Assembly (NCBI GenBank): GCA_964016885.1
Contig: OZ024753.1
Coordinates: 17,918,001-17,982,000 of the forward strand
Source of the DNA: Eledone cirrhosa
Lineage: Eukaryota
DNA length: 64,000 bases
Reading direction: 5' to 3'
Below the pieces are notes generated by a model that was not told where the DNA came from, ran no database searches, and saw only the letters and a list, made by a program, of their open reading frames with translations. The number at the start of each line of letters is the position of its first letter. Position 1 is the stretch's first letter. Made by a program: the position numbers and the translations under genes. This document shows positions 16,982 through 60,989 of this stretch, piece after piece.

Positions 16982-18682
16982 TAGTATAGTTATAATGGCA
17001 ATGATTAAGCTGAGCTATCTTTGCAGTTTATGTATGAGACGTAAAATGATGATTTCAGCCGCGTAGCTTATATTGACATGACTGGTGACGAGGAGTATAA
17101 GAATAATTTACAAGAAAATTACAGAGACAAACTACGACACCACGAAAGAAACTGAACGCTTAAACGTTAGAATTTATAATTAATGAAAACTACAAACATA
17201 ACGTGTTTAAAATATTCATTTGGTAAACGATGAGCTCTTGTAAAAAAAGGCAGAGAAGAGAATCTCAGAATTTCAATCAATTAAAGGTAATTAAATCTAG
17301 AATCCTGTGGAGAGATAGTGGGATATTTAGCAGGTATCGCTGGTATTCGAGTTAAGGTTACTGAAAAATGATGGATTGTTATAAACAGCAGAATTTAAAT
17401 TAAGATTAATTTAAAAGTGGAATACTGTGGGGAGATATTCCCACATACATTCGTGTGCTCATAACTAAGTATCGATCATAGTAAAATTAACGATATTGGA
17501 TAATGAAGAATTGATGTATTAAACACGTGGGAATTATATCTTAATATATAAATGTAAATCTATGTTTGTTTCACGTTGTAAGTCTCAGCTTTTGTACATC
17601 ATTTGCTGACATTTTGCATTCGGTCGCATGTTTATAAGGCAACGTGAAAGGGTTAGGTGACGTCTCCGATAATTGATGTTTCTTAGACCTAGGAATAATT
17701 AAAACTAGGAATAATCCCTTAGACCAAGTATTGTTGTTGCCATTGGAAACATTTTCTGATTACAACAATAATTCATTTCAACAAATTATGCAAATTAGTA
17801 TATTAGTTGGAAACGACGCATGTTTTCCGGGTAAATAAAGAAATGATAGGTAGCTTTTAAAATTGATTTTCTCTGATTTTGTAGCTGAATTTGAGTCATC
17901 ATCTGATAAATTGACACTCTAAACAATCTAAAAATTGTCAGCATCATTCTAAAATGGTGTCTAAAATAGAGTGGATGCTTGCGATTTTATTTATGTAAAA
18001 ACAAATCTGTGCAAGGCCGGGTACGGCTTTTAGTTGTATTATATATCAGAATCCTAGAGGTATAAATATAATGCTTGATTTCTTTAGATCATTTAAATTT
18101 ATATTCTGAGATTGTTTGAATGAAGTAACATTGAAGTCATATTAAGAATTATAATTGTAAATACAGATATACATGCATATTCTAACATACTATTCATGAA
18201 CATACGATTGAGTCAAAGTCACAAAAATTGCATTTATAATGTCCTGAAACAAAGGAATCTCATAAATTTGAATTGTTAACCGACATTAAATATTGTTATG
18301 ACAAGAGACATATACATTTTGGGTGTATTCGAACTATAAATGTCATATTTTTTGACAATATTAGTTGAACGCCATAAACATAATACTAATGGTTATCATG
18401 GACTCCGCATACATTGTTAATCAAACAGAAAATGATATAGATTCCGGAAGAAAACATTGTATTTAGTAGGCATAAAGTTTCCATCCCCCAAATATATGTC
18501 GAATACCATTTTTCATACGCTTTTATTCACATATACGATTAAATGTTCTAGGAAAATTTTATAATCGAATGGATTGAGCTCCGTATAATAATGATTCTTA
18601 GGTAATTATTACCAAACGGATAATTCTGAAAATCTGAAATAAATCGAACTGAAAATCGAGATGAAAGAAGCTAGATACTGTA

Positions 18683-18719
<37 letters not shown>

Positions 18720-18724
18720 ATATA

Positions 18725-19142
18725 TATAAAATAAAATAAATAAGTAAAATGTTTACAATTTGGCTTCGTTTATTACTGCTTTATATATTTCGGTGACAGC
18801 CATCTTTGGCTGTGACCTCTTCAGGCAGTCCGAATTAGTGTGGTAGAGACGAGTACAGATGTTGTTGAGGTGTATAACTTTGTCAATACTCTGATATGCC
18901 CAGTTCCTGTGTACTCGTCTCTACCACACTAATTCGGACTGCCTGAAGAGGTCACAGTCAAAGATGGCTATCACCGAAATATATATTGCAGTAATAAACG
19001 AAGCCAATTTTTAAACATTTGACTTATTTATTTATTTTATTTTACATTACTCCGGAGTAACCAAACCAACCTGCGAACTTCGTCGAGTGCTCCAGCCTGC
19101 ATACTGAGGTGTTGGTATACAGCCAACATATACTCAAACTTT
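18725..19142 (+). mobile_element. Fold-back PLE-type mini-element, family C
   Basis: 18727-18857 is inverted at ~18910-19040, then a ~100-bp tail; both arms carry an HHR; TA flanks. Confidence 0.8.
18938..18992 (+). ncRNA. Type I hammerhead
   Basis: acugc-CUGAAGA(18943-18949)-ggu.c.acaguc/ggcuau.c.acc-GAAA(18976)-uauau-AUU-gcagu; mirror copy at ~18775-18830 on the minus strand. Confidence 0.8.
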
Positions 19143-19164
19143 ATATATATATATATATATATAT

Positions 19165-22100
19165 ATAGATAATTTAATATATCAACTAACATAAGCGCAC
19201 AGATGCACGCCCATGCCAGCAAATACACAGGTTATGTCATAGTACCTAGGTGGTTCAATGCAGGAGAATGCAGAACAATAATATAAAGGACGTAAAATAA
19301 GAAAATATTTTTTTAAAAAAATTTAAAAAAAAAATTTTTTTTCTTACTTAAATTTTCACTCCAACTAATTAGTTTCTGCAATGGGATAAAGACAGTTACG
19401 TAATCCAACTGTCGAGAATTCATTGCGTCATCAGGAAGTCTATTCTCAGTTAAGTCTCCAGGCAATGCGCGGACACTGGCGGCTCATATAAAAATAATAA
19501 TAATTCGGTAGATCGAACAGCTTGCGTGGACTGGATTCTATGTACCGAAATTCTCACTGCTTCAAGTCAAATGGCCGATTCTAAAGAATCAATCACGTGA
19601 CACAGAGGCTAGTTAGAAGGAATGGGATGGTAAGATGACTGACGCCTACTAACACCCCAAAAAAAAATTTTTTTAGAAGTGGTTTTGACAAGTTTGCTCG
19701 ACAAATCAGTGATTTGGAGATAAATATAGATAATTTAATATATCAACTAACATAAGCGCACAGATGCACGCCCATGCCAGCAAATACACAGGTTATGTCA
19801 TAGTACCTAGGTGGTTCAATGCAGGAGAATGCAGAACAATAATATAAAGGACGTAAAATAAGAAAATATTTTTTTAAAAAAATTTAAAAAAAAATTTTTT
19901 TTTCTTACTTAAATTTTCACTCCAACTAATTAGTTTCTGCAATGGGATAAAGACAGTTACGTAATCCAACTGTCGAGAATTCATTGCGTCATCAGGAAGT
20001 CTATTCTCAGTTAAGTCTCCAGGCAATGCGCGGACACTGGCGGCTCATATAAAAATAATAATAATTCGGTAGATCGAACAGCTTGCGTGGACTGGATTCT
20101 ATGTACCGAAATTCTCACTGCTTCAAGTCAAATGGCCGATTCTAAAGAATCAATCACGTGACACAGAGGCTAGTTAGAAGGAATGGGATGGTAAGATGAC
20201 TGACGCCTACTAACACCCCAAAAAAAAATTTTTTTAGAAGTGGTTTTGACAAGTTTGCTCGACAAATCAGTGATTTGGAGATAAATATAGATAATTTAAT
20301 ATATCAACTAACATAAGCGCACAGATGCACGCCCATGCCAGCAAATACACAGGTTATGTCATAGTACCTAGGTGGTTCAATGCAGGAGAATGCAGAACAA
20401 TAATATAAAGGACGTAAAATAAGAAAATATTTTTTTAAAAAAATTTAAAAAAAAAAATTTTTTTTTCTTACTTAAATTTTCACTCCAACTAATTAGTTTC
20501 TGCAATGGGATAAAGACAGTTACGTAATCCAACTGTCGAGAATTCATTGCGTCATCAGGAAGTCTATTCTCAGTTAAGTCTCCAGGCAATGCGCGGACAC
20601 TGGCGGCTCATATAAAAATAATAATAATTCGGTAGATCGAACAGCTTGCGTGGACTGGATTCTATGTACCGAAATTCTCACTGCTTCAAGTCAAATGGCC
20701 GATTCTAAAGAATCAATCACGTGACACAGAGGCTAGTTAGAAGGAATGGGATGGTAAGATGACTGACGCCTACTAACACCCCAAAAAAAAAAAAAATTTT
20801 TTTAGAAGTGGTTTTGACAAGTTTGCTCGACAAATCAGTGATTTGGAGATAAATATAGATAATTTAATATATCAACTAACATAAGCGCACAGATGCACGC
20901 CCATGCCAGCAAATACACAGGTTATGTCATAGTACCTAGGTGGTTCAATGCAGGAGAATGCAGAACAATAATATAAAGGACGTAAAATAAGAAAATATTT
21001 TTTTAAAAAAATTTAAAAAAAAATTTTTTTTTTCTTACTTAAATTTTCACTCCAACTAATTAGTTTCTGCAATGGGATAAAGACAGTTACGTAATCCAAC
21101 TGTCGAGAATTCATTGCGTCATCAGGAAGTCTATTCTCAGTTAAGTCTCCAGGCAATGCGCGGACACTGGCGGCTCATATAAAAATAATAATAATTCGGT
21201 AGATCGAACAGCTTGCGTGGACTGGATTCTATGTACCGAAATTCTCACTGCTTCAAGTCAAATGGCCGATTCTAAAGAATCAATCACGTGACACAGAGGC
21301 TAGTTAGAAGGAATGGGATGGTAAGATGACTGACGCCTACTAACACCCCAAAAAAAAAAAATTTTTTTAGAAGTGGTTTTGACAAGTTTGCTCGACAAAT
21401 CAGTGATTTGGAGATAAATATAGATAATTTAATATATCAACTAACATAAGCGCACAGATGCACGCCCATGCCAGCAAATACACAGGTTATGTCATAGTAC
21501 CTAGGTGGTTCAATGCAGGAGAATGCAGAACAATAATATAAAGGACGTAAAATAAGAAAATATTTTTTTAAAAAAATTTAAAAAAAAATTTTTTTTTCTT
21601 ACTTAAATTTTCACTCCAACTAATTAGTTTCTGCAATGGGATAAAGACAGTTACGTAATCCAACTGTCGAGAATTCATTGCGTCATCAGGAAGTCTATTC
21701 TCAGTTAAGTCTCCAGGCAATGCGCGGACACTGGCGGCTCATATAAAAATAATAATAATTCGGTAGATCGAACAGCTTGCGTGGACTGGATTCTATGTAC
21801 CGAAATTCTCACTGCTTCAAGTCAAATGGCCGATTCTAAAGAATCAATCACGTGACACAGAGGCTAGTTAGAAGGAATGGGATGGTAAGATGACTGACGC
21901 CTACTAACACCCCAAAAAAAAAAAAAATTTTTTTAGAAGTGGTTTTGACAAGTTTGCTCGACAAATCAGTGATTTGGAGATAAATATAGATAATTTAATA
22001 TATCAACTAACATAAGCGCACAGATGCACGCCCATGCCAGCAAATACACAGGTTATGTCATAGTACCTAGGTGGTTCAATGCAGGAGAATGCAGAACAAT

Positions 22101-24993
22101 AATATAAAGGACGTAAAATAAGAAAATATTTTTTTAAAAAAATTTAAAAAAAAATTTTTTTTTTCTTACTTAAATTTTCACTCCAACTAATTAGTTTCTG
22201 CAATGGGATAAAGACAGTTACGTAATCCAACTGTCGAGAATTCATTGCGTCATCAGGAAGTCTATTCTCAGTTAAGTCTCCAGGCAATGCGCGGACACTG
22301 GCGGCTCATATAAAAATAATAATAATTCGGTAGATCGAACAGCTTGCGTGGACTGGATTCTATGTACCGAAATTCTCACTGCTTCAAGTCAAATGGCCGA
22401 TTCTAAAGAATCAATCACGTGACACAGAGGCTAGTTAGAAGGAATGGGATGGTAAGATGACTGACGCCTACTAACACCCGAAAAAAAAAAAATTTTTTTA
22501 GAAGTGGTTTTGACAAGTTTGCTCGACAAATCAGTGATTTGGAGATAAATATAGATAATTTAATATATCAACTAACATAAGCGCACAGATGCACGCCCAT
22601 GCCAGCAAATACACAGGTTATGTCATAGTACCTAGGTGGTTCAATGCAGGAGAATGCAGAACAATAATATAAAGGACGTAAAATAAGAAAATATTTTTTT
22701 AAAAAAATTTAAAAAAAAATTTTTTTTTCTTACTTAAATTTTCACTCCAACTAATTAGTTTCTGCAATGGGATAAAGACAGTTACGTAATCCAACTGTCG
22801 AGAATTCATTGCGTCATCAGGAAGTCTATTCTCAGTTAAGTCTCCAGGCAATGCGCGGACACTGGCGGCTCATATAAAAATAATAATAATTCGGTAGATC
22901 GAACAGCTTGCGTGGACTGGATTCTATGTACCGAAATTCTCACTGCTTCAAGTCAAATGGCCGATTCTAAAGAATCAATCACGTGACACAGAGGCTAGTT
23001 AGAAGGAATGGGATGGTAAGATGACTGACGCCTACTAACACCCCAAAAAAAAAAAATTTTTTTAGAAGTGGTTTTGACAAGTTTGCTCGACAAATCAGTG
23101 ATTTGGAGATAAATATAGATAATTTAATATATCAACTAACATAAGCGCACAGATGCACGCCCATGCCAGCAAATACACAGGTTATGTCATAGTACCTAGG
23201 TGGTTCAATGCAGGAGAATGCAGAACAATAATATAAAGGACGTAAAATAAGAAAATATTTTTTTAAAAAAATTTAAAAAAAAATTTTTTTTTCTTACTTA
23301 AATTTTCACTCCAACTAATTAGTTTCTGCAATGGGATAAAGACAGTTACGTAATCCAACTGTCGAGAATTCATTGCGTCATCAGGAAGTCTATTCTCAGT
23401 TAAGTCTCCAGGCAATGCGCGGACACTGGCGGCTCATATAAAAATAATAATAATTCGGTAGATCGAACAGCTTGCGTGGACTGGATTCTATGTACCGAAA
23501 TTCTCACTGCTTCAAGTCAAATGGCCGATTCTAAAGAATCAATCACGTGACACAGAGGCTAGTTAGAAGGAATGGGATGGTAAGATGACTGACGCCTACT
23601 AACACCCCAAAAAAAAAAAAAATTTTTTTAGAAGTGGTTTTGACAAGTTTGCTCGACAAATCAGTGATTTGGAGATAAATATAGATAATTTAATATATCA
23701 ACTAACATAAGCGCACAGATGCACGCCCATGCCAGCAAATACACAGGTTATGTCATAGTACCTAGGTGGTTCAATGCAGGAGAATGCAGAACAATAATAT
23801 AAAGGACGTAAAATAAGAAAATATTTTTTTAAAAAAATTTAAAAAAAAATTTTTTTTTTCTTACTTAAATTTTCACTCCAACTAATTAGTTTCTGCAATG
23901 GGATAAAGACAGTTACGTAATCCAACTGTCGAGAATTCATTGCGTCATCAGGAAGTCTATTCTCAGTTAAGTCTCCAGGCAATGCGCGGACACTGGCGGC
24001 TCATATAAAAATAATAATAATTCGGTAGATCGAACAGCTTGCGTGGACTGGATTCTATGTACCGAAATTCTCACTGCTTCAAGTCAAATGGCCGATTCTA
24101 AAGAATCAATCACGTGACACAGAGGCTAGTTAGAAGGAATGGGATGGTAAGATGACTGACGCCTACTAACACCCGAAAAAAAAAAAATTTTTTTAGAAGT
24201 GGTTTTGACAAGTTTGCTCGACAAATCAGTGATTTGGAGATAAATATAGATAATTTAATATATCAACTAACATAAGCGCACAGATGCACGCCCATGCCAG
24301 CAAATACACAGGTTATGTCATAGTACCTAGGTGGTTCAATGCAGGAGAATGCAGAACAATAATATAAAGGACGTAAAATAAGAAAATATTTTTTTAAAAA
24401 AATTTAAAAAAAAATTTTTTTTTCTTACTTAAATTTTCACTCCAACTAATTAGTTTCTGCAATGGGATAAAGACAGTTACGTAATCCAACTGTCGAGAAT
24501 TCATTGCGTCATCAGGAAGTCTATTCTCAGTTAAGTCTCCAGGCAATGCGCGGACACTGGCGGCTCATATAAAAATAATAATAATTCGGTAGATCGAACA
24601 GCTTGCGTGGACTGGATTCTATGTACCGAAATTCTCACTGCTTCAAGTCAAATGGCCGATTCTAAAGAATCAATCACGTGACACAGAGGCTAGTTAGAAG
24701 GAATGGGATGGTAAGATGACTGACGCCTACTAACACCCCAAAAAAAAATTTTTTTAGAAGTGGTTTTGACAAGTTTGCTCGACAAATCAGTGATTTGGAG
24801 ATAAATATAGATAATTTAATATATCAACTAACATAAGCGCACAGATGCACGCCCATGCCAGCAAATACACAGGTTATGTCATAGTACCTAGGTGGTTCAA
24901 TGCAGGAGAATGCAGAACAATAATATAAAGGACGTAAAATAAGAAAATATTTTTTTAAAAAAATTTAAAAAAAAATTTTTTTTTCTTACTTAA
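19165..24993 (-). mobile_element. Tandem array of 10 full + 1 partial 561-568-bp hammerhead-containing monomers (retrozyme-like)
   Basis: Monomer starts near 19165, 19726, 20287, 20855, 21420, 21986, 22551, 23115, 23681, 24246, 24807; copies differ almost only in homopolymer length; each full copy has tcatcag and aactaattagtttc. Confidence 0.9.
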
Positions 24994-26261
24994 TGACGCA
25001 ATGAATTCTCGACAGTTGGATTACGTAACTGTCTTTATCCCATTGCAGAAACTAATTAGTTGGAGTGAAAATTTAAGTAAGAAAAAAAAATTTTTTTTTA
25101 AATTTTTTTAAAAAAATATTTTCTTATTTTACGTCCTTTATATTATTGTTCTGCATTCTCCTGCATTGAACCACCTAGGTACTATGACATAACCTGTGTA
25201 TTTGCTGGCATGGGCGTGCATCTGTGCGCTTATGTTAGTTGATATATTAAATTATCTATATTTATCTCCAAATCACTGATTTGTCGAGCAAACTTGTCAA
25301 AACCACTTCTAAAAAAATTTTTTTTTGGGGTGTTAGTAGGCGTCAGTCATCTTACCATCCCATTCCTTCTAACTAGCCTCTGTGTCACGTGATTGATTCT
25401 TTAGAATCGGCCATTTGACTTGAAGCAGTGAGAATTTCGGTACATAGAATCCAGTCCACGCAAGCTGTTCGATCTACCGAATTATTATTATTTTTATATG
25501 AGCCGCCAGTGTCCGCGCATTGCCTGGAGACTTAACTGAGAATAGACTTCCTGATGACGCAATGAATTCTCGACAGTTGGATTACGTAACTGTCTTTATC
25601 CCATTGCAGAAACTAATTAGTTGGAGTGAAAATTTAAGTAAGAAAAAAAAATTTTTTTTTAAATTTTTTTAAAAAAATATTTTCTTATTTTACGTCCTTT
25701 ATATTATTGTTCTGCATTCTCCTGCATTGAACCACCTAGGTACTATGACATAACCTGTGTATTTGCTGGCATGGGCGTGCATCTGTGCGCTTATGTTAGT
25801 TGATATATTAAATTATCTATATTTATCTCCAAATCACTGATTTGTCGAGCAAACTTGTCAAAACCACTTCTAAAAAAATTTTTTTTTTTTTGGGGTGTTA
25901 GTAGGCGTCAGTCATCTTACCATCCCATTCCTTCTAACTAGCCTCTGTGTCACGTGATTGATTCTTTAGAATCGGCCATTTGACTTGAAGCAGTGAGAAT
26001 TTCGGTACATAGAATCCAGTCCACGCAAGCTGTTCGATCTACCGAATTATTATTATTTTTATATGAGCCGCCAGTGTCCGCGCATTGCCTGGAGACTTAA
26101 CTGAGAATAGACTTCCTGATGACGCAATGAATTCTCGACAGTTGGATTACGTAACTGTCTTTATCCCATTGCAGAAACTAATTAGTTGGAGTGAAAATTT
26201 AAGTAAGAAAAAAAAATTTTTTTTTTAATTTTTTTAAAAAAATATTTTCTTATTTTACGTC

Positions 26262-26268
<7 letters not shown>
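24993..26268 (+). mobile_element. Inverted segment of the same array (~2.3 monomers)
   Basis: Exact reverse complement of the monomer; ends cgtcctttata into (TA)n. Confidence 0.9.
25546..25627 (+). ncRNA. Type I hammerhead, representative of all array monomers (second + copy from 26111)
   Basis: acuuc-CUGAUGA(25551-25557)-c-gcaaug..gacaguu/aacuguc..cauugc-a-GAAA(25609)-C-UAAUUA-GUU(25620-25622)-ggagu. Confidence 0.85.
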
Positions 26269-26300
<32 letters not shown>

Positions 26301-26419
26301 AAGTAATTCAGTCGGAAAGGTCCAGAAAAAAATAGTTCTTTATGTAAATTACAGAGCTTATTAGTTATGTAATAAACAACATAAGACCATTTTATACATA
26401 TATATAAATTATATATATA

Positions 26420-26804
26420 TATAAATTAATAAACACAATGAAATAAAAACAAAGAACAAGTTCCTTATATTAAAAAAAAAAAAAATTCATCATCTTACGA
26501 TTGTTTCTGGGATGTATATGTGTGTTGGTATGTATATCATATTTATCTATGGAAAAATATTACAAATTATCAGAGGAAATATACATACCTTCACATATAC
26601 ATGCCGTCCTCAGAAACGATCGTAAACTGATGAATTTTTTAATATAAGGAACTTGTTCTTTGTTTTTATTTCATTGTTTTTATTAATTTATCTTGACTCT
26701 GTTTTCCTATGATTTTTTTATCGAAAAATTTTAATGCATCTTCTCTTTTCATGATATTTGGATTACATTGAGTTCTTCATACGGGTTGGACACTACCGTA
26801 TATT
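26420..26804 (+). mobile_element. Fold-back PLE-type mini-element, family D
   Basis: 26421-26509 is inverted at 26611-26691; long-stem-II HHR on the minus strand (CUGAGGA at 26607-26613); tail homologous to 1405-1517. Confidence 0.75.
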
Positions 26805-27540: not shown

Positions 27541-27555
27541 ATATATATATATATA

Positions 27556-30500
27556 TTGTTATATTTGGGGAGGGTCATATTTGCGTAATATTGCCAGAAT
27601 TAATAACAGAACACACTCACTGTTTGGTTGGTTTTCGATTCTCGCTGCCTTTTATATATATATATATCTGCGATCTAACTTACTCGGTCCTCAATGTTGC
27701 CATTGACTGACCGGCGGTCAAAAATAATACAGATACAATATAGACAAACACATATATATATAGTTTACATAATTTACATAAATCTTTCGTTGCACATCTG
27801 CAACATCGTCAGTGGTGTTATATTCATTGTTCCTCCTGTTGTGTTGTATGTCTACGCCATTTTTTTTTTTGTGTTCAGTCTGTCTATATATTTATTTATT
27901 TATTTGCTTGTTTGTTTATCTTATTTTATTTTGTCTTCTTTGCGCATGCGTTTGCGTGTGTGTATAGTGTTATGTGTGATGTGTGACTAGTGTGTATAGT
28001 GTTGTGTCTGCTGGGTGACTAGTGTGTGTTTATGTGCTTGTGTATGTATTTATTTATCTTATTTTATTTTATTTAATTTACTTATTTATTTATACTTCTC
28101 TTAGGTCAATGTTGTTTGTTTGGGTGTTGTTGTTGTTCCACTCATTCTTTCTGTTTAGCTTTGGTCTTCTAATTTCTATTTCACTGGCCTCTCTGATTTG
28201 CCTATCTGCTGGGTCATTCCTATGTTTAGATATTATTCTAATTTCTATGTTGTCTATGTTACCGTCATGTTGTTGTCTAGCATGTTCGTATAGTACTGAC
28301 CCGTTTTTTCGTCCTTTTAGTTCCCCCCAGTGTTGGTCTATCCTTTCACCTATGCTACGAGCTGTCTCACCTATGTATGTTGTTGTCGTGTTTCTGCAAG
28401 TACCCTCTGTACATCTTATGCTATAGACTACGTTTCTAGTTTTACAGTTTATCCGGGGGTTCACCTTACATATGATACATTTCCTATTGGTACAGTGGGT
28501 TTTCTTAAAAGGGTAGGTTTTGCTGATCAGGGATTTTATGGTGGTTCCTGGCTTTTCTACCACCTTTATTTTTAAGTGGGTCTTTCTCAGGGCCTTTCTA
28601 CACTGGTTAGCTAATTTCCCTCCAGGGGTGGCGTCCACAAACATGACACTCTGATATCTCTGGTTGTCGTACCATGATGTGGCCTTCCCTATCTTATGTC
28701 TAGTCCTATCTAAGCTATTCCATGATTTGCTCCTGTATAGTGGGCAAATTCCTTTCATGTCCAGTTCTATGAGGGTCTTATACTTTTCCATGGCTCCTTC
28801 GTATACTCTGACTCTGTCTCTTTGGTTGTAGCCAGAGAACTGCATGCGGTTGATGAAGTGTTGGATGTGTCCTTCCATTTCTGTTGGGTCGCACATGCTG
28901 GACACATTCTTCATCACTCGTACCAAATCTGCGATCAGAATATTAAACTTAGCACTACTGGACATTGCTGAGTTTTTGAGTATCAGGTATTTGGAGGCCA
29001 TGGGTTTAGCATAGTGTGAGTGGAGAATTTGGGCTCTCTCGTCTATAGTGTTAATCCAGAGTTCTGTGTCTAATACAGGTAGTCTATTGTTAGGGTGTTT
29101 GGAAGGGAAGTCTATAGTTACAGTTATACTCTGGTGTATGGAATTAGCTATCTGCTGGATGCTTTCCATCGTGCTACGTTCTAAATCAAACTTGTTAGTG
29201 CTCTCTAGTGGGGGTGTTCTTATAACTATATTGATATCGTCTACATAACGAGAGTACATGATGAGGTCTATGGAGCTTTCATTAAGGAGATCTTTAAGTC
29301 TCCTTTCCCACCATACCATGAAAAGGTTGGCAACATCACCAGCTATGCTGACGCCGATGGCTGCTCCCTCATTTTGGGTGTAGATTTTCTCATTGAACTT
29401 AAATATGTGGCCCTTTAGGGTAGTTTTGATACTAGCCCCTATTGCATGTGCGACCATTTTTCTTACCTGATCAGTGTTTTGGGGGGTCCGTATAGCTTTG
29501 GTCCACCCAATCCACCTTCCTATGGGAGTCTTTTTAGCCATTGAGGTTATGGTGGGGGGTCTACCTCTTATAGGTCTACTAGGGCAGAAACATCTAAGGT
29601 CATGGCTGTCTAGGTAGTCAGTGTCGTAGGTAAGTCTAAGTAGGAGGCCCAGTTCGTCTGTGTCGACGTCGCAGAACTCCACCTCACTCTCAATGATCAT
29701 CTCCACACATCTTTTCACAGCAAAATCAATGTTAATGGATGGGTACAGTGACACCACATCCATGCTGCCTATTATGCAGTTGGATAGGCTCCTGTTTTTG
29801 TTGCACTCACTGATTCTGCTGAGGAGGTCCTCTGTACTTTCACATACATCTGGGGACATCTTGATTATGGGGCGTATAACCATTGAGAGGAAGTAGGAGA
29901 TCCTGTAGTTGCTAGCTATATTAGCTCCGCATACGGGTCTTGTTGGTGGTCCTGTTGTCGGGTCGTCGACTGTCTTGTGGTCTTTGCGGAGCCCATACAA
30001 GGGTGGTATGCCATTGTTAGACGCCTGGAAGTTGTTGGCAGTGCGTCTGCTTGGCTTTAGGATGTCAGTCCACATCATCATGTGAGCGTTGAGGATTTTT
30101 TCTCTCCCATCGTGTGTTAGTTGTGCAACTTCGCTCGTGTTGGTGATGTGGGGTTGCATTGCCTCGATGTAGTTCGGCATGCTATCTATTGACATCCTAC
30201 CAGACTTATCTGTGGGTAGACACACTACCTCACCATCCCTTGTGCGCTGCTTGAGGCTAACCAAGCCTTCTACAGGTTTTATCCCAAGTTGTTGGGCCTC
30301 TGGTCTGCTCTGTCTCATAGTGTACCTGTCTACTACTTGTCTAATCTTATTTCTAGCTATGGTGAACTGTGCCTCCGTCTCGTCATCTATTTGCTGTGGT
30401 ATGCAAACTCTTTTATTAAAGGGTAACCTCGTAGGATAGATATTACCCATCTTATATGTTTTGTCAGCTGGGTTGAAAAATAGTTTCTCTAAGGGGTTGT

Positions 30501-31741
30501 CGTTATTTCTATCGTCATAGTTGTGTGTGTTGCTATTATTGTTATCATGGTGGTTGTTGTTGTTTCTATCATTAGCATTAATATTATTATTGTTATGATT
30601 GCTAGATGTATTGTTGTTTACTTCACCGTTATTGTTGTTGTTGTTACTGCTATTTCTACCATTGTGGTTGTTACTATTATTATGTTTCTTGTTTTTGTTG
30701 ATGTTGCTACATGTACTATTTCCATTATTACCACTGTGGTTATTGTTGTTGTTGTTGTTCGTATTGTTACCGTTATTACTACTGTGGTCACTGTTGCTGT
30801 GTCTGTGGTTAACGTTTCTATTATTATTATTATTGTGGTTGTTGTTGTTCTGTCTATCGCTAGTATTATTACCATTATCACTATTTCTCACTTTCCTGCC
30901 ATTGTTATGGTTATGGCTGTTATTTCTATCCCCAGAGTTATTGTTTATATTACTACTACCGTTATTATTGTTGTTGTTGTTGTTTACCTTTGCATTCCAA
31001 CGTATTTTTGTGAAACACTTTTCCAGCTCCGTTTTGCATTCCATAGGGTTAATCTTTTTGTAGATGGCAAATTTTGGTGGTAACTTTAGGATTTGTTGTT
31101 CTTGTTCACTGATTAAAGTGTTCCCATAGATATTTACTGTGTGGTCATTGGTAAATTCTTCCGGTAGTTTTACATCACTCATACGGATGTTGTCGATGTT
31201 ATCTGGGTATTTTTGAGAATATTCGATTTTCCCCAGCAGACACAACACTATACACACTAGTCACACATCACACATAACACTATACACACACGCAAACGGA
31301 TGCGCAAAGAAGACAAAATAAAATAAGATAAACAAACAAGCAAATAAATAAATAAATATATAGACAGACTGAACACAAAAAAAAAAAAAAATGGCGTAGA
31401 CATACAACACAACAGGAGGAACAATGAATATAACACCACTGACGATGTTGCAGATGTGCAACGAAAGATTTATGTAAATTATGTAAACTATATATATATG
31501 TGTTTGTCTATATTGTATCTGTATTATTTTTGACCGCCGGTCAGTCAATGGCAACATTGAGGACCGAGTAAGTTAGATCGCAGATATATATATATATAAA
31601 AGACAGCGAGAAGCGAAAACCAACCAAACAGTGAGTGTGTTCTGTTATTAATTCTGGCAATATTACGCAAATATGACCCTCCCCAAATATAACAATATCT
31701 GTTTCGACACACGATTTCATATAAAAAACCTCGCAAAACTA
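27556..31741 (-). mobile_element. Young Penelope-like element with ~460-bp inverted pLTRs
   Basis: 27556-28016 and 31232-31696 are near-identical inverted repeats; extra 45-bp tail at 31697-31741; TA flanks. Confidence 0.95.
28090..31257 (-). CDS. PLE polyprotein: reverse transcriptase + C-terminal GIY-YIG endonuclease (Neptune/Nematis-like); N-terminus truncated at the pLTR junction
   Basis: 1055-aa open frame: PTDKSG, PPLYGLRKDHK, RPVC, SMDVVSLYPSI, GAAIG, RYVDDI, LPVLD, CxxxxCxxC..C, NVVY..YIGETARS..ERIDQH, LNRKNEW. Confidence 0.92.
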   Translation of the reverse strand: MCIVLCLLGKIEYSQKYPDNIDNIRMSDVKLPEEFTNDHTVNIYGNTLISEQEQQILKLPPKFAIYKKINPMECKTELEKCFTKIRWNAKVNNNNNNNNGSSNINNNSGDRNNSHNHNNGRKVRNSDNGNNTSDRQNNNNHNNNNNRNVNHRHSNSDHSSNNGNNTNNNNNNNHSGNNGNSTCSNINKNKKHNNSNNHNGRNSSNNNNNNGEVNNNTSSNHNNNNINANDRNNNNHHDNNNSNTHNYDDRNNDNPLEKLFFNPADKTYKMGNIYPTRLPFNKRVCIPQQIDDETEAQFTIARNKIRQVVDRYTMRQSRPEAQQLGIKPVEGLVSLKQRTRDGEVVCLPTDKSGRMSIDSMPNYIEAMQPHITNTSEVAQLTHDGREKILNAHMMMWTDILKPSRRTANNFQASNNGIPPLYGLRKDHKTVDDPTTGPPTRPVCGANIASNYRISYFLSMVIRPIIKMSPDVCESTEDLLSRISECNKNRSLSNCIIGSMDVVSLYPSINIDFAVKRCVEMIIESEVEFCDVDTDELGLLLRLTYDTDYLDSHDLRCFCPSRPIRGRPPTITSMAKKTPIGRWIGWTKAIRTPQNTDQVRKMVAHAIGASIKTTLKGHIFKFNEKIYTQNEGAAIGVSIAGDVANLFMVWWERRLKDLLNESSIDLIMYSRYVDDINIVIRTPPLESTNKFDLERSTMESIQQIANSIHQSITVTIDFPSKHPNNRLPVLDTELWINTIDERAQILHSHYAKPMASKYLILKNSAMSSSAKFNILIADLVRVMKNVSSMCDPTEMEGHIQHFINRMQFSGYNQRDRVRVYEGAMEKYKTLIELDMKGICPLYRSKSWNSLDRTRHKIGKATSWYDNQRYQSVMFVDATPGGKLANQCRKALRKTHLKIKVVEKPGTTIKSLISKTYPFKKTHCTNRKCIICKVNPRINCKTRNVVYSIRCTEGTCRNTTTTYIGETARSIGERIDQHWGELKGRKNGSVLYEHARQQHDGNIDNIEIRIISKHRNDPADRQIREASEIEIRRPKLNRKNEWNNNNTQTNNIDLREV

Positions 31742-34639: not shown

Positions 34640-35082
34640 TATCATTATAACACTTTAATAGTATGATATCCTTCCTCCATCATTACAACATTATAATGGT
34701 ATGATATCCTTCCTCCATTATTACAACACTATAATAGTATGATATCCTTCCTCCATCATTACAACACTATAATAGTATAATATCCTTCCTCCATCATTAC
34801 AACACTATAATAGTATGATATCATTCCTCCATTATTACAACACTATAATAGTATGATATCCTTCCTCCATCATTACAACACTATAATAGTATAATATCCT
34901 TCCTCCATCATTACAACACTATAATAGTATGATATCCTTCCTCCATTATTACAACACTAACATAGTATGATATCCTTCCTCCATCATTACAACACTATAA
35001 TAGTATGATATCCTGCCTCTATTATTACAACACTATTATGAAATAGTATGATATGCTTCCTCTATTATTACGTCACTATTAT
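34640..35082. repeat. 38-bp minisatellite, ~11 copies
   Basis: Unit acaacactataatagtatgatatccttcctccatcatt. Confidence 0.95.
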
Positions 35083-47043: not shown

Positions 47044-50000
47044 AAGGATAAAAAGGACGATTGATTATTCCTTCATTGCATTTATTGATAGGTGACGCGC
47101 GTTTCGCCGCTGATCAGCTCAAGGTTCGATCTATATCGATCCTACCCGACTCAATAATCCGTAGCTCGACGGACCTTCTTAAAATGCTATAAGAAAATGA
47201 AATACATGCTATGTGATAAAGTCAGATATTCAAGAGAAGGGTCAAGGCGATGTATTGGCCTGTAGTGTATATGGGGGTGGGTGTGATGGTGAGATGTTGG
47301 TGACGATGGGTGGATGAGATGGGCTGTGGTGTGGTGGTGGTTGATTGGTCTTGGTGTGTAGAGTATGTGGGGGTGGATGTTATGATATGGTGGTGGTTAT
47401 GGTTGCTTAGTGGGATGGGCTGTGGTATGAGGTCAGCAGAAGGGTTGGGTGTGTGTGGGGGTGTGGTATTGGTGCCGCTGTCTATGGTAGTGGCGTTTGC
47501 GGTGGTGTGGCGGATGTATTGGTGGCGTCAAGGTCATTACCTAGATACTTAGCTAGACGCTCATCGTCTGACAGATGCTTTGTATATACGTATACGCACA
47601 CACATATAGGCATATATGTGCACACATACTGTTGTATAAACACACCCACCACAAAACACATACGCACATCCTTGCCCACACATATCGACACACGCTCACA
47701 CAGCCATATGTATATGTACACACATGTATGTGCGTGTGCGCATGCGGACACGAATATGGAGAGTGGGGGAGTATCGTTGGGGGTGGCGAACGACGGAGAT
47801 GGGGGAAGGTGAGAGGCAATATAGAAGGTGTTTTACATACATACATACACATACATATACCCATACACACATATGGGTATGGGCACATGGACTCACACTC
47901 ACGTATACAAAATATACACATACACACTCACACACACGTATACACACGCACATATATTCACATACATATATATACATACACATATATATATATATACATA
48001 TATAAATATATATATAAATACATATACACACACACATGTACAGACAACACAGATATACACGCACATATACACATACATGCACGTACATGAGCTCACCTAC
48101 ACATATAGTCAGATTCACCCATATACATATATGTAGACGTGCACATATACACACATACATACACATACATATAGACACACACACACATACACATACGCAT
48201 ACACATACACATATATATACAGATACGTACCCACACATACACACATGTATACACCTGCGCTCACATACACACACACACACGTACAATAACTATGCGTACC
48301 CGCACGCACACTCATACGTCCGTATGTGTAAGAATACCTACACACCGACACACACGCTATTGTTGGTTGGGGAGTGGGGGGTATGTGTTGTCGGTGTTGG
48401 TGAAGTATGGAGTTGTGTTTTGTGGTGGTGGTGGTGGAGTTGTGAGGGACAAAAATATATATACAGGATCGAATACCGGTTAAAAGGTGACATAGGGAAC
48501 GCGGGGGAGAAGCGTTTATGGACGTACGGCGATGTGTATTGTGGACATGGTGATGGTGGTGGTGCTGGGTGATATGTTCGACAAGATGATTACATGATCA
48601 GAGGTTACGGTGTGTTATAGGGTAAGGCAGGCGGGGGTTGGGGGATATATAATACAGTCGATCTGGGAGCGAGGGGTGATATGTGTTGATGATGTTAATG
48701 ATAATGATTGTTGAGGTATTTGGATGTATCTAGTGGTGGCGGTGGTTGTGTGTGCGTGCGACAGTACAATTACAGGGTCGAATTTAGCGTGGGGTTGTAG
48801 GTTAGGGTAGACAGGGGGAACATGGGGGATGAGGCTGTAGGTGTGTATGGTAGGCATATGACGATGTGTCGAGTGGTGGTGGTGGCGATGGTGTGATATG
48901 ATCGACATTGTATTTACAAGGTCCCTTGTCATTGTGGATTGCAAGGTAGATCGTATCATAGGATACCGATCTAATACGATGTTGCAACGATGAGGTGTGT
49001 ATGTTGATGTGAATTTTGGTGGTGGTGGTGGTGATGTGTGCGGCATGATATAGAAATGCGGATTTAGAAATGGTTACATGGAGTACAATACAATAAGTTC
49101 ATTGAGGTGGGCGATGTTGAGACGGGGTATATGTGGTTATTAATATGGTGTGTCATGGTTAGTGTGATTTTTGGTGTGGGTTATGTATGCGGCATGATAT
49201 ACAAAATACGGGCTTATATATGGTTAAATGCAATACAATAAAATAAGATAAAGTAAAGTAAGATTAGAATTAAAATTCGTTGAGATCGGCGATAGTGATA
49301 CGGGGCAGATATGGTTATTATTATGGTGGGTCATGGTTAGTGCGTGGCCCTCCCGCGAAAGTTTGTGCAGAAAAGGTGTTCATCCTAGTGTGTCTGCAAT
49401 TGACAATTATGTCCGACCTATAGTTTATGGCGGAATTTAGTTTAATTATTTCCACCGCCTGAGCTAGGCATAATCTGCAGTGATTTCTGTCACTGGGGAT
49501 ATATGCCACGCGTCTTTTTACTGACCACGAAATCTGGGGTTCAATATTCCTGTCCTTGAGGTCCCAGATCAAGTCGGCCAGTTTTGTTTGGGGTCGTTTC
49601 GATCTATGTTTGAAGGAGCCTCTGTGGTTATACCAGCGCTCCTTAAACGTTGTGGATGTCGCACCTATATATGAGTACTCCTTATTGCCGGCTGTGACAT
49701 CGCACCGGTAAACAGTATTCTTAACGAGGCACTCCCCGTTTAGTGGGCATTCGGCTCGTATTTTGCAGTTGCATTTGGGTGTAACCGGTGCGGTGGCACG
49801 ATGGCGGTTGGTGTCATGCGGTGTTGGTGTGGTGTGTGCTGTTGTGTTGTGTTGTGTGTGTGGTTTCGTTCTGGGTTGTGGTGGTGGTTTGTTGAGGGGA
49901 AACCATGTGTTTTTGTATTTTTGCCCTATTATTGTGTGCTATTGTGTGACCTAGGTTTGGTGCTGTGGAGAAAGAGAATTTTACGGTGTGTCTATTGAAG

Positions 50001-55227: not shown

Positions 55228-55592
55228 GGGCGGTGGATTGGCAGTATCGGTAGAGAGTCGGACGCCATGCTTTTCAGCATAGTTACGTCCCTTTACAATC
55301 TGAGTTCAAATCCCGCCGAGGTTGACTCTTTGCTTTTCATCCTTACGGGGTCGATAAAATAAAGTACCAGTAATGCACAGGTGAATTTGCTGGCCTTGTG
55401 CCTAAAGTAGAAACAATTATTACATTAGAGGGTTGGATTATGCTTTCCAGCATAGTTACGTCCCTTTACGATCTGAGTTCAATTCCCGCCGAGGTTAACT
55501 TTGCCTTTCATCCTTACGGGGTCGATAAAATAAAGTACCAGTAATGTACTGCGATAATTGCTGGCCTTGTGCCAAAAGGTAGAAACAATTAT
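55228..55592 (+). mobile_element. Two tandem SINEs
   Basis: Consensus match; attattacat occurs three times at the junctions. Confidence 0.9.
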
Positions 55593-56099
55593 TACATATT
55601 GATATAGTAGCATTACACGTGGCATTGCATGCATTCATAATTCTACATATCGTTGTATGTAACATATATTCCTCATTTTTCAATTATATAAAGCAAATTA
55701 TTTGATTTTATTTGATATACGCCAATGGGACCCCAAATCTCTAGAGTCATCACATAAAATATTTGTATTCCATAGTCTGACAGTTTAATTGTGTCTCATA
55801 ACATAAAGGGAGAATTCTCTGAAGTGCATTGTAATATAAACTTTATTAAAAGTGTTTGTCTCTTTATTATGTGTGTCTTCAGACATATCTGCCGTACCAA
55901 TTCTCAATACAATTGAGGCAAACGCTTACTTAACTATAACTCACCAACATATTCTTCGATTTCTAGCTTTATTATAAACATATTGATCACAGCACAGAAT
56001 TGAATTTTGGTGCATGCTTACTTTCCACATAAATAATTGAAACTAGAAGTTAGGTTAGGACATAAGTAACTCATGCAAACTAATGGAATACGTGTATAA

Positions 56100-56716: not shown

Positions 56717-59700
56717 TTTCTTTATCAACCACAAGTGTTTAGACAAAGTAGTCTTACTTTGTGTAAGGACAATACAGGACAACACAGGACAATACAGGAC
56801 GGTACAAATGGTCATTTCTGCGTGTAAAAAACAAAAATAGAGGATGTAACAAAAAAAGAAAGAATGAAAAATTCCCCAATAGGGGGAGTCTTTCGAGGGA
56901 AATTCGTGGAGAAAGCCCATTAAAAAAGTCACGGTAACCCTGACCACCCGGGCAAGTGCCCTCTCCCAGTTTTCCACCTTCAATTTACAGGCGCATACTC
57001 AGAGGAGATCCATTCACTGGGGCCATGCTTGCTCTCTCACCCATCTTTCCACAAAATGCTGGGAAGAGAGCACTTCCCTCTCTACTTTGATTTTCCTTAT
57101 CAAATGAAATTTGAAAAAGTTAATGAGGGCATCCCCAAAGAGGTAAGTGCTCATTTCAGCCCTTTCAAACGCAACCACCACACTATCTCTTTCGCCATGG
57201 CCACCTGACAGATAAAAACTGCCTGCGCTTCCCGGCTAAAGGAAGAGGGCGGAGCAATCCTCACAATGGACTCAGCTGATAGCTGGATCCGTCCTACACG
57301 CGATAGCAGGTGTTCGACATAAACCCACAAGTCAGTAATGCTCTGACACTGGACGAGTGCGAGCAGGACGGTTTCGTCGCCCAGTGCGCATCTCGGACAT
57401 GCCCGACTCACGGCACTTCCATACCTGTAGAGTTTATTCCGAACTGGCAAAGTTCCTCGGTAGCACTGCCAGGCCGGGGATTTCTGGAAGTTGTTCATAG
57501 GCTCCGGCCCGAAAGTTCCCCCGAACAGATTGGCTAGTTGATTTTCGTCGACGTCCAGAGTCTCCCCAAGTACGACGTCGCTATTCCCCTCCACTAATCC
57601 TCTATAGAACGCTGAGGTAGAGTTTACACTGATCGCATTGCCCGACTGATCGAGGGCTGTGAGCGCCTAAAGACATTCCAGTCTCGAAGCGCTCCCTCTC
57701 GATCTTCGCATGACCCAGGACTGCAGCTCCGTCAAGGAGACTAGCTAGGGAAACACGCGTCTAGCAAACAGCGACCAACCCTGATCACCGCCGAGGAAGA
57801 GGTGGAGATGTCGTAGCCTGAGCGCGTGTCTGCGCATCATCAGTCATGGTATGCCTAGCCCTCCACGTAGCGAGTGTTGACAGCAGATGGACCGCCTGAC
57901 CATCCGAGCGCATCCCTTCCACAAAAAGCGAAAGAGCAAACGTTCCAGCGCACTCAGGCGAGGCACGACGGTCAGGCGGTAGTAGATGACGGACGCGATG
58001 TATGCATTCCCCACTTCCGCTCGACCTTTCAGCGATAGCTTCATCTCTCCCCATTTCTGGGTGAGAGAAGCCAACTTGTTCGTCACCTCGTCCCAGTTTT
58101 TGTCCGTCTGGAGGTCCGGACCGAACCAGACCCCTGGCAATTTAACCGGTCCGTCCATCCAGCGCCCGACAACGCTGTTGAACGGCATGGACCTGCCTCT
58201 CCAGGTGCGGAGCTGCAGGCTCACCGACTTTTCCTGGTTGATCATTGCTCCTGTCACCACCTCGTATTCTCTTAGTGTGGTGCCGATCACCTCGATGTGT
58301 TTGGCGTTCGACACCACTACGGCGACATCGTCTTCATATGCTGACACGGGTCTTCCACATCCCAGTTCGCGCTGGACCCCCCCTCAACGTCTCCAGTTTT
58401 TTCAGTAATGACTCGGGAGTCAATACGTAAAACAGGGACGAGAGGTGACATCCTTGGTGGATCGAGCGCATGATGTTGAACGGTTCCGAAAGGTGACCGT
58501 TCACTCTCACCACAGAGCAGATGTCGCTGTTCATGTCAGCGATCCAGCCTCTGAAAACGGGCCCAAAGTCAATCGCCCTCAGGACTGCCGCCAGATAACG
58601 ATGGTCGACCCTATCGAAAGCTTTCGCTGATCTAAATTGATCAAGGACCCACACGTGCCATGTTCCCTAGCTACCCTCTCCACGAAGTATCGCATGAGGT
58701 GGAGGTTGACGTGATTGATCTGTCTGGGATGGCGCAGTTTGCGCCTCTCTTACCAGACAACCAATGACAAGCGCCAACCTCTTTACTACCACCTTGGCCA
58801 AAATCTTGAACTATGTGTTTAGCAGAGATATGGGCCTGAAATGATCTATGTTATCACCCTTGTTAGTATCCTTTCTCAGCAGCGTCACCGCTCCTCGGCT
58901 AACAGAGCTGGAAATTCTCCCGTTCTGTTGCCAGTTGCAGTAGACGTCCGCCTAGGGGTCTCCGAACAAGTCTGGCATGTATACGTAAAGTTCGTAGGGC
59001 AGACCATCCAAACCAGGTGATTTACCCTTTGTGCAGCCAGTCATTGCCTCCCGTACTTCAGCGGCTGTTATCGGCTTTTCGCAACACTCCGCCTCAGTGG
59101 CCGAGAGCCGCGGTATTAGTCGAGGTAGGCACTAAAGTCCATCCCTCGATCCGGCCGGCCGCTGCCCCCGAACAGCTGGGCGAAGTGTCGCAGAAAATCT
59201 TCACACATTTGCCCGGGATCGAGTAGCATGCGCCCGTCGTGGTCCACCAAAGACCGGATCCTGGCTTTGTTGCCACGACGCGCCTCCGCCACTCGCTTCC
59301 AGTAGCCGGGTCCCTGAAGTCTATCTAAGTCAACCTCACAGACCACGAATTTGTGGTCCGTGTAGTCGACTATTTTGAATTGTGGACAGCCTATGCTAGA
59401 CCTATCTATTTCCCTACAAAATACCCTATATATATATATATATATGATCTGTATGACTCGATGCGGTTTGTTCATCTCCACATTGGCACATTCGGGAAAT
59501 CCAGACGGTACTGTCTGAGCAGGTTTGCGAGGCTTTTACACCCTCCTCTCCTATCCGCCAATCCCACACAGTCCCAACGTGTATCTAAGATCCCGTTCCA
59601 GTCGCCCACTAACACTAAAGAGCGGACGTTCCAAGAAAGGTCTCCAGACGCCGGAAGAAATCAGGCCGCCCTGCTCCTGTCGGGCATATACGGCCACTAG

Positions 59701-60980: not shown

Positions 60981-60989
60981 TATCACGAG

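Follow-up and report, generated by a model that had tools for sequence, protein, structure and literature searches.

Metazoan non-LTR retrozymes, the closest described relatives of the repeat analyzed here, are, in the accessible parts of the literature, tandem arrays of non-coding units in which every unit carries a type I hammerhead with a weak palindromic stem III. They have a low GC content (~35%) and a self-paired fold, occur in thousands of dispersed copies and share their genomes with Penelope-type elements (PLEs). The animal unit measures 150-450 bp in the text consulted of Cervera and de la Pena 2020 (PMC7229834), and retrozyme units span 51-972 bp in the available part of a recent preprint (Li, Clavereau and Pollet 2026, bioRxiv 10.64898/2026.07.22.740005), in which 1 of 9 predicted retrozymes cleaved. 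Retrozyme repeats show no motif that identifies their mobilizing machinery (2020 review, PMC7761336).

EN+ PLEs (Neptune/Hydra/Naiad), as described in the portions seen of the relevant papers, can carry an inverted 5'-truncated copy at the 5' end and a tail at one end only (bioRxiv 10.1101/2021.04.23.441226, PMC3846280), and they combine 5' truncation and (TA)n targeting with a hammerhead upstream of their ends (Craig et al. 2021; Arkhipova et al. 2013). For the purified anole PLE PAc, the accessible text of Frangieh et al. 2024 (PMC11167929) reports that both target strands are cut and extended, that two internal RNA start sites define the tail, and that uncleaved RNA is the main substrate.

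The window analyzed here is a stretch of 64,000 nucleotides from Eledone cirrhosa (contig OZ024753.1). At ~19163-26269 it holds an array of ~12.6 units, with 10.3 units in hammerhead sense on the - strand and 2.3 units on the + strand, flanked by (TA)n on both sides. The features of the array are as follows.

19142..19167, no strand: left (TA)n target, overlapping the arm end through TATAT microhomology
19163..24993, - strand: long arm of ~10.3 units, with its 3' end at monomer +195 to +200 and its 5' end at +12
21054..24443, - strand: six units in which one 3-unit signature occurs twice without differences, a probable later duplication or an assembly effect
24993..24993, no strand: head-to-head junction, monomer +12 joined to +497 with one shared base
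24993..26269, + strand: short arm of ~2.3 units, with its 5' end at monomer +497 and its 3' end at +78 to +82 (the short end)
25546..25627, + strand: representative predicted type I hammerhead, with the CUGAUGA core at 25551, GAAA, and a cut after 25622
25701..25822, + strand: tail region spanning monomer +79 to +200, bounded by the two fixed 3' ends
26265..26297, no strand: right (TA)n target, the right flank of the array

The two arms meet head-to-head at 24993, where one A is common to both, and the 3' end of the long arm is the long end, which bears a 118-nt tail. By analogy with the anole PLE (PMC11167929), the tail region 25701..25822 may hold the two points at which the RT starts. A preliminary description of this DNA had recognized the near-identical monomers without a conserved ORF, the (TA)n at both ends and the inversion of the last ~2.3 monomers (the + strand arm from 24993), all of which the present analysis bears out. 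The monomer length, previously given as up to 568 bp, is 561-567 bp when measured on 11 cut-to-cut units; described earlier as long for its class, it does fall outside the 150-450 bp of PMC7229834 and yet lies within the 51-972 bp given in the part seen of the 2026 preprint. The longest frame is 56 codons stop-to-stop, or 36 from Met, and the unit lacks the RT plus GIY-YIG ORF that defines an autonomous PLE. Its GC content is 0.34-0.37. As a circle, it has a minimum free energy of -134.9 against -106.9 ± 6.4 for 40 shuffles (z -4.3), a difference to which A/T-run hairpins contribute in part. With its period limit of 500, TRF did not detect the array. After homopolymer compression, the units fall into two types (nine and two units) that are one G/C change apart. 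Units 4-6 of the left arm match units 7-9 exactly, including the only substitution (G/C, in units 6 and 9). The original insert was therefore probably shorter than the ~12.6-mer first proposed as a single insertion, and the left arm was probably lengthened afterward by at least one 3-unit duplication.

Each full monomer had been credited with a complete type I hammerhead, and there are indeed 12 complete motifs in the 12.6 units (10 on the - strand and 2 on the + strand). Cuts are predicted after GUU at 25061, 25622 and 26187 on the + strand and from 19363 to 24444 on the - strand; the site at 25061, the 13th, sits in a 5'-truncated hammerhead at the junction. The representative motif consists of stem I, a stem II of six base pairs plus a C-A mismatch, and a palindromic stem III. 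Across 22 copies compared, CUGANGA, GAAA, NUH and stems I-III are all present, the core is invariant, 99% of cells are paired and stem II shows 21 two-sided changes; the covariation score was matched by 0 of 500 shuffles, which do not control for relatedness of the copies. The hammerhead pattern matched the genome 4,490 times, against 0 for a reversed-pattern control. Judged by these matches and by the compensatory pairs in stem II, the hammerhead pattern is present beyond chance. The palindromic stem III is predicted to form a dimer duplex at -10.8 kcal/mol, compared with +2.0 kcal/mol for a 2-bp hairpin, which favors a dimeric ribozyme in the modeled fold, as had been surmised. Three features count against the ribozyme reading: the invariant C-A mismatch that closes stem II, which takes the place of the canonical G10.1-C11.1 pair next to the core and is followed by a G-C pair; the GUU triplet; and the lack of an Rfam score. 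Specifically, the Rfam search proposed earlier gave no hammerhead family match at the gathering score over the whole window, nor at E<=10 over 18500-20300, where the top matches were miRNA models on a neighboring palindrome. The minimum free energy fold of the isolated motif has stems I and II and a mispaired core (z -1.2 and -1.7).

Genome-wide, the unit belongs to a dispersed family with 740 candidate places, 40 of which were scored and gave 294 matches; an identity of 97-100% among the matches listed indicates that the family is young. The 40 young loci, selected for carrying a full-length unit (a choice that favors long arms), map to 13 contigs, and none has LTRs. The counts omit older diverged fragments (identity <89% or length <60 bp) in L047, L056, L064 and L068, together with a separate insertion upstream in L054. 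Twenty-seven of the 40 loci are two-armed, and in all 27 the arms are head-to-head. The 3' ends of all 67 arms fall at only two places, +82/85 from the cut site (35 arms) or +196 to 204 (32 arms), and 66 of the 67 are flanked by (TA)n, with L033 as the exception and L037 scored by eye. One end of each kind is found in 26/27 two-armed loci (binomial p 2e-7), leaving the tail on one side only. The 5' ends are scattered along the unit (Rayleigh p 0.01, KS p 0.13), with a single arm of 67 ending within 5 nt of the cut site. Every arm crosses at least one cut site and 55 of the 67 cross at least two; arms run up to 10-11 units, as many as in the longest arrays among the 40 loci. The arms share 1-8 nt at the junction in 18/27 two-armed loci, and 25/27 junctions join unrelated monomer positions (+12 to +497 in the window); L034 (488/490) and L037 (535/537) are near-symmetric. 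L1 twin priming likewise joins two cDNAs, primed by two target ends on one RNA, into a head-to-head inversion at microhomology. In L1, the first primer is at poly(A) and the second at an arbitrary internal site, whereas in the array neither site varies and the two cDNAs are multimeric.

The ends, which the preliminary description had proposed to survey along with the copy number, proved non-random. Its view that the array is no ordinary satellite holds: a head-to-tail repeat with arbitrary ends, grown in place, is rejected by the fixed ends, the inverted arms and the hundreds of short dispersed loci. Its assignment to non-LTR-retrozyme-type elements likewise agrees with a dispersed, young family bearing Penelope-type insertion marks. 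A Helitron-type DNA rolling circle, judged by the general features of Helitrons, was also rejected, as polarity follows the ribozyme strand and the 5' ends are random.

Two further features of the window provide comparators.

115..980, no strand: older subfamily copy, ~512-bp unit, 77-80% identical to the array unit
27553..31740, - strand: Neptune-like Penelope element with RT and GIY-YIG, 5'-truncated ORF at 28090-31260

The older copy is head-to-head, with ends at +174 and +61 and (TA)n on both flanks. Among 30 loci of this subfamily, 18 are single-armed or unscorable by motif; the 12 scorable loci all have one end of each kind, with a tail of 113 nt. The neighboring Penelope element is two-armed as well, lies inside (TA)n and has a 43-nt tail. 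In its family, 17/17 two-armed copies pair an end at +251-258 with an end at +301-317 in (TA)n, and tails measure 43-59 nt. Because 16 of these loci were chosen by eye as neighboring -/+ pairs, arm orientation is not an independent count; the end pairing is. The family has 37,317 candidates, of which the 150 scored were at 99-100%, and is very young. This neighboring element serves as an internal comparator and as a candidate trans-acting enzyme.

The array differs from the retrozymes described in the accessible literature in its ~560-bp unit and in being known from genomic sequence alone. The 2026 preprint, in the part available, argues from pLTR homology and co-occurrence; here the argument rests on the insertion footprint, and no pLTR homolog was found in the neighboring PLE or in 0.92 Mb of fetched loci. 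The array shares with EN+ PLEs the absence of a discernible TSD together with microsatellite-targeted insertion (66/67 3' ends in (TA)n). Relative to the published accounts of EN+ PLEs consulted in part, it lacks an ORF, each arm is built from repeated copies of a short unit, the tail is 118 nt instead of 30-40 bp, and in the hammerhead stem III is full and stem II long. Compared with PAc, as far as the available text of PMC11167929 goes, one start region lies at a similar distance (85-92 nt 3' of the hammerhead cut in PAc, versus +78-82 in the array). PAc, however, starts without target homology and uses its sites without strand preference, whereas in the array the ends share TATAT microhomology with the target, and an insertion almost always uses each of the two sites once. 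Within the literature searched, part of it seen only in excerpt, a head-to-head two-arm insertion that targets (TA)n and has two fixed 3' ends is undescribed for retrozymes; in the text consulted, the word "inverted" is absent from PMC7229834, and "tail" and "TPRT" are absent from bioRxiv 10.64898/2026.07.22.740005. Retrozymes are a known kind of element, and the two-arm, two-end insertion footprint is new to that literature. "Hammerhead," "ribozyme" and "retrozyme" are also absent from a 2026 Octopus vulgaris repeat annotation (PMC13282606), and no description of a cephalopod retrozyme group was found in the literature searched, most subscription papers and supplements lying outside its scope. 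The family, with at least 4,490 motifs, seems to represent a cephalopod retrozyme group that has gone unreported.

We consider it reasonably likely that the array is a non-autonomous hammerhead retroelement, a non-LTR retrozyme, mobilized by a (TA)n-targeting PLE through an RNA that is probably circular. As suggested by its structure and by the accessible part of PMC7229834, tandem transcripts would be cut by dimeric hammerheads formed through the palindromic stem III, and the resulting ~560-nt monomers, sometimes dimers, would be ligated into circles. A PLE RT/GIY-YIG protein, probably a dimer, would bind the RNA just 3' of the hammerhead and cut a (TA)n tract on both strands. The free 3' DNA ends would then anneal to UAUAU motifs, one end at +82 and its partner at +200, and each would prime its own cDNA on the same RNA. 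Both RTs would pass the cut/ligation site repeatedly, giving the multimeric cDNAs of random length seen at the loci, and the cDNA ends, joined by 0-8 nt of microhomology, would leave a head-to-head insert with the 118-nt tail on one side; extension from one end alone would leave a single arm. The anatomy favors a pair of cDNAs, one primed from each target end, rather than the one multimeric cDNA insertion first envisaged. The identical end-pairing rule in the co-resident PLE (17/17) and the retrozyme (26/27) supports a PLE mechanism, and a 118-nt tail far longer than the 30-40 bp described for PLEs, or the 43-59 nt of the neighbor, counts against it. More tentatively, and on balance still short of what we would call probable, a dimeric PLE RT may place two active sites on one circular ribozyme RNA and carry out double rolling-circle copying into the cut (TA)n.

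Variants common to both arms bear on the template. Eleven substitutions, spread over 8 loci, occur in all units of both arms, and no substitution is fixed in a single arm; T401A is carried by 12/12 units of the window array and is absent from the rest of the 40 loci. Divergence is 0.036% within an arm, 0.069% between arms and 0.25% between loci. At L040, two haplotypes defined by four linked markers alternate over 7+3 units, in register on both arms. These patterns suggest one template per insertion, copied into both arms. A cleaved linear monomer is rejected as that template, since each of the 67 arms runs through at least one cut site. An uncut linear read-through transcript of a tandem array, used for PLE twin priming at +82/+200 with the hammerhead slow or inactive in vivo, is unlikely but deserves the most weight among the alternatives. 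It fits the end and junction statistics equally well, and shared variants would be expected from it because source arrays are nearly homogeneous. Uncleaved RNA dominates as the anole PLE substrate (PMC11167929, text seen in part), and the non-canonical stem II base would suit a poor ribozyme. Poly-T lengths of in-register units of opposite arms are identical in 10/32 pairs versus 6.3 expected (p 0.03), an excess that leans slightly toward a linear multimer with inherited differences; yet 22/32 pairs differ and the mean difference between in-register units is not smaller (p 0.6). Moreover, 5' truncation would shrink arrays each round unless they regrew, whereas arms of 10-11 units equal the longest arrays; the strict alternation in L040 requires a period-2 source anyway; and stem II covariation over at least five variants implies that the ribozyme fold is under selection.

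Insertion of one or two units by a PLE-type process, followed by local DNA amplification through unequal crossover, is a model stated in the accessible part of bioRxiv 10.64898/2026.07.22.740005 and would account for the exact 3-unit repeat in the left arm and for the partly repeated variants of L039 and L061. We regard it as improbable, as multimers occupy the two arms at very young loci (0.07% between arms) with the fixed ends intact, L038 and L041, with hypervariable poly-T, show no repeated unit patterns, and amplification would not set the L040 alternation in register across two inverted arms. More improbable still is an inversion without two primers, made when one cDNA or antisense template folded back and primed itself or when the DNA was rearranged later. 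Junction palindromes were so interpreted for rotifer Penelopes (PMC3846280, consulted in part) and the junctions of L034 and L037 would fit, but 25/27 junctions link unrelated positions, and the second arm at the other fixed site in 26/27 loci stays unexplained. Finally, a chimeric inversion or a collapsed or expanded repeat could be an assembly or amplification artefact, to which the exact 3-unit repeat might be due. As a general cause this is rejected and we give it almost no credence: the anatomy recurs across 13 contigs, at 40 loci that differ in their flanks, unit numbers and private variants, as well as in the older subfamily and an unrelated PLE, and an artefact would not respect two fixed RNA-sense end sites.

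If double rolling-circle copying by a dimeric PLE RT is correct, the loci would be direct in vivo evidence that PLEs mobilize retrozymes from circles, and PLE tails, head-to-head inversions and tandems, including the at least 56-kb tandem that the autonomous 4.1-kb PLE also forms in the E. cirrhosa genome, would reflect one mechanism. Two questions are addressed, namely which machinery moves animal retrozymes and how PLEs make tails and inversions, and for both the loci offer a footprint that can be counted: start sites that are fixed and paired, a single template for each insertion, and a locus with period 2. Because a very young, intact, (TA)n-targeting PLE protein resides in the same genome, the model is testable in the existing in vitro PLE assay with the 560-nt RNA in linear or circular form.

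No autonomous partner turned up in the following searches, which counts against the model. Sensitive BLAST of the retrozyme unit against the neighboring PLE and both flanking elements returned A/T-rich noise only. A tblastn search with PLE domains, covering 0.92 Mb of the 3-Gb genome, detected no hammerhead pattern downstream of PLE endonuclease matches, and no pLTR homology to an autonomous PLE was found there or in the neighbor; the same search (915 kb of fetched loci) did detect Hydra/Nematis-like endonuclease fragments. Eight copies of the left-neighbor family lack a PLE-like ORF within ~2.6 kb upstream. A PDB sequence search with the PLE RT gave weak matches (E 0.05-0.15), and a pattern spanning both end motifs, with its gap set too short, retrieved 14 deletion variants. 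Among 24 sequencing runs, compared as assembled contigs and not raw reads, the 18 labeled or guessed to be RNA share 0.04 of the array words, and organisms F and G in the run listing share 0.35 and 0.33.

Our analyses placed the array among the following repeats of the window:

115–980, older-subfamily copy, ∼512-bp unit
3472–4755, plus strand, PLE endonuclease fragment, CxCX5C linker, Hydra/Nematis-like
∼19163–26269, both strands, retrozyme array, bounded by two (TA)n tracts
34641–35079, 38-bp minisatellite, 11.4 copies
49321–49938, minus strand, PLE endonuclease fragment, CxCX5C linker, Hydra/Nematis-like
55267–55597, SINE-like dimer, 171-bp

The array carries ∼10.3 hammerhead-sense units on the minus strand and 2.3 on the plus strand. 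These two arms are joined head-to-head at 24993 via one common base, which links positions +12 and +497 of the monomer (numbered from the predicted cut). The ∼12.6 units, inverted arms and (TA)n ends of the preliminary description were thus confirmed. The 11 complete cut-to-cut units span 561 to 567 bp; beyond A/T run lengths, the only difference among them is a single G/C change, carried by units 6 and 9. Twelve hammerheads are complete, and the longest frame has 56 codons, in agreement with the proposed lack of a conserved ORF. At 7.1 kb the array is the longest among 40 young loci. Its left-arm units 4 to 6 and 7 to 9 carry the same signatures, including the array's only substitution, which makes it probable that at least three left-arm units were gained once the insertion was in place or through assembly. 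Given this repeated three-unit signature, two cDNAs with subsequent growth fit better than the single 12.6-mer insertion first proposed.

The array unit has 740 candidate genomic places; scoring 40 of these gave 294 matches, with 97 to 100% identity among the 150 matches listed. The window array and 39 other scored loci, on 13 contigs, were mapped; these 40 were chosen for holding a full unit, and long arms are therefore over-represented. Two arms were present at 27 of the 40 loci, always head-to-head, and one arm at 13. The arms end 3′ at ∼+82 (35/67) or ∼+200 (32/67), both at TATAT, with no third site, and 66 of 67 ends reach (TA)n. Thus, rather than the random ends that the preliminary description had set against its reading, all 67 arms showed one of two fixed 3′ sites. 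One arm per end site was found at 26 of the 27 two-armed loci (p = 2 × 10−7 versus independent choice), and both sites were used by one-armed loci (7 and 6). The 5′ ends are scattered, with a single one of the 67 no more than 5 nt away from the cut site, and every arm runs across one cut site or more. Arm junctions showed 1- to 8-nt overlaps (18/27), were flush (4/27) or contained 2 to 65 extra bases (5/27).

An older subfamily (∼512-bp unit, 2,853 candidates) ends at +61 and +174, sites homologous to those of the young family, with one end of each kind in 12 of 12 scorable loci (30 sampled). Further subfamilies, seen among 30 hammerhead matches sampled in order of position, have the same two end classes. 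Among the older-subfamily loci (L101 to L130), several arms, such as those of L112, L128, L107 and L104, have a 5′ end ∼20 nt or less from the cut site.

Located 1.3 kb right of the array, at 27553–31740, is a Penelope-like element (PLE) that combines RT and GIY-YIG domains with a CX4CxxC linker and appears Neptune-like as far as motif comparison with Craig et al. (bioRxiv 10.1101/2021.04.23.441226) indicates. The nearest named relative of its protein comes from Octopus vulgaris (68% identity), which speaks for an octopod host. Its family has 37,317 candidates, a 4,146-bp unit and full frames of 1,217 to 1,218 codons containing an asparagine-rich insert, and is, judged by the 99 to 100% identity of the 150 scored, extremely young. 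Each of 17 two-armed copies (17 of 17) has an arm ending at +251 to +258 and another ending at +301 to +317 (counted from the PLE's own hammerhead core), both in (TA)n. Similar to this PLE, described PLEs have an inverted copy and a tail on one side only (PMC3846280; bioRxiv 10.1101/2021.04.23.441226). Because paired fixed ends in (TA)n are common to PLE copies and retrozyme, the retrozyme bears the insertion footprint of a PLE, its 118-nt tail being longer; sequence similarity between retrozyme and neighboring PLE was not detectable. Elsewhere (G000:C28:42.00-42.06 Mb, loci L147 to L150), at least 10 copies of the PLE unit extend over at least 56 kb, also head-to-head; the ORF of L147 is intact and encodes 1,218 aa.

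The variant comparison covered 304 unit pieces, with 460 positions left unmasked. Eleven substitutions, in eight loci, are fixed throughout both arms and none in one arm only; 5 of the 11 occur at a single one of the 40 loci, among them T401A, which the window array carries in 12 of 12 units. The remaining variants occur in single units (31) or are partial (2). Divergence rose from 0.036% (within arms) through 0.069% (between arms) to 0.25% (between loci), and A/T-run haplotypes are likewise common to both arms of a locus. These data point to one template per insertion. At locus L040 (G000:C4:311537800-311547700), two haplotypes with four linked markers, both with intact hammerheads, alternate strictly along one arm (seven units) and along the other (three units), with matching register when counted from the 3′ ends. 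Most simply, priming of the two arms would have taken place in one and the same unit of a dimeric template. L040 is the best single candidate locus for a dimeric circular template. Poly-T lengths in in-register units of two arms were identical in 10 of 32 cases versus 6.3 expected (p = 0.03), with mean difference unchanged (p = 0.6). Across the 40 loci, the poly-T at +255 to +268 is stable at length 8 and hypervariable upwards, to 25, from length 9, as expected for slippage at each RT pass.

The hammerhead of the preliminary description was not reported for the array by Rfam, and the isolated motif has a predicted fold with a mispaired core; it was, however, upheld by a genome pattern count and covariation. 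Specifically, the pattern with the array's stem III matched 4,490 times in the 3.0-Gb genome, and its reversed version 0 times. Across an alignment of 22 copies, the core does not vary, 99% of stem cells are paired, stem I gained a base on both sides together, and two stem II pairs show two-sided changes (21 cells, one position having four pair types), a covariation whose shuffle control does not account for relatedness of the copies. Comparison of copies thus rescues the predicted structure. Non-canonical features are a GUU triplet and an invariant C-A mismatch where G10.1-C11.1 is expected. The palindromic stem III has a computed energy of +2.0 kcal/mol as a hairpin (unstable) and −10.8 kcal/mol as a duplex (stable), which agrees with the earlier view that it suits a dimeric hammerhead and fits predicted dimeric cleavage, as described for hammerheads with such motifs (PMC4209133).

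Arm geometry, fixed paired ends, the (TA)n target, microhomology and common haplotypes are seen directly. We propose that a PLE protein would cut both strands of (TA)n, each cut target end would prime on a UAUAU of one and the same RNA, and the two cDNAs would become joined at their far ends. According to PMC11167929, purified anole PLE, a predicted dimer, cut and extended both target strands and has two internal start sites that define the tail. That PLE-type dual priming made the insertions is, in our view, highly probable. Inversion by fold-back self-priming is disfavored because 25 of 27 junctions are asymmetric.

The circular template is less certain, and dual priming on a circular RNA is the overall reading toward which we lean. 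A cleaved linear monomer is excluded as template by the cut sites crossed in all 67 arms, leaving either a circle or a multimeric transcript that was not cut. The latter, a linear multimer, is the less likely of the two; it is helped by the unusual base in stem II (the C-A mismatch) and by cleavage in just one of nine predicted retrozymes reported in a preprint (bioRxiv 10.64898/2026.07.22.740005). Ribozyme conservation, arms that match the longest arrays in length and the period-2 alternation at L040 favor the circle.

By the features testable on DNA, the element is a metazoan non-LTR retrozyme and would work like one. PLEs have long been suspected as the mobilizer (PMC7761336), a case to which pLTR homology in Xenopus was added in a 2026 preprint (bioRxiv 10.64898/2026.07.22.740005). 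In the main texts of openly accessible papers we found no retrozymes described as having arms joined head-to-head, fixed ends used in pairs or insertion into microsatellites, and no cephalopod retrozyme family, the last in line with the preliminary description.

The array is inserted in (TA)n at the end of a second non-coding hammerhead element (18729–19141; 882 candidates), unrelated to it, with a CUGAAGA core and minimal palindromic stem III. This element is head-to-head, its long arm ending ∼+154 from the predicted cut, and eight copies of its family had no PLE-like ORF upstream. Another repeated element (26298–26800 and 1400–1710), with an inverted-repeat layout and decayed hammerhead-like motif, lies immediately right of both retrozyme copies in the window. 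Fragments related to the Hydra/Nematis-like PLE endonuclease are present in many fetched loci; that at 3472–4755 lies inside an element with long inverted ends (∼2800–3170 and 5740–6110). Finally, a GC-rich block at 57150–63500 contains degraded RT and endonuclease frames, which we take to be L1/Tx1-like judging from their translations.
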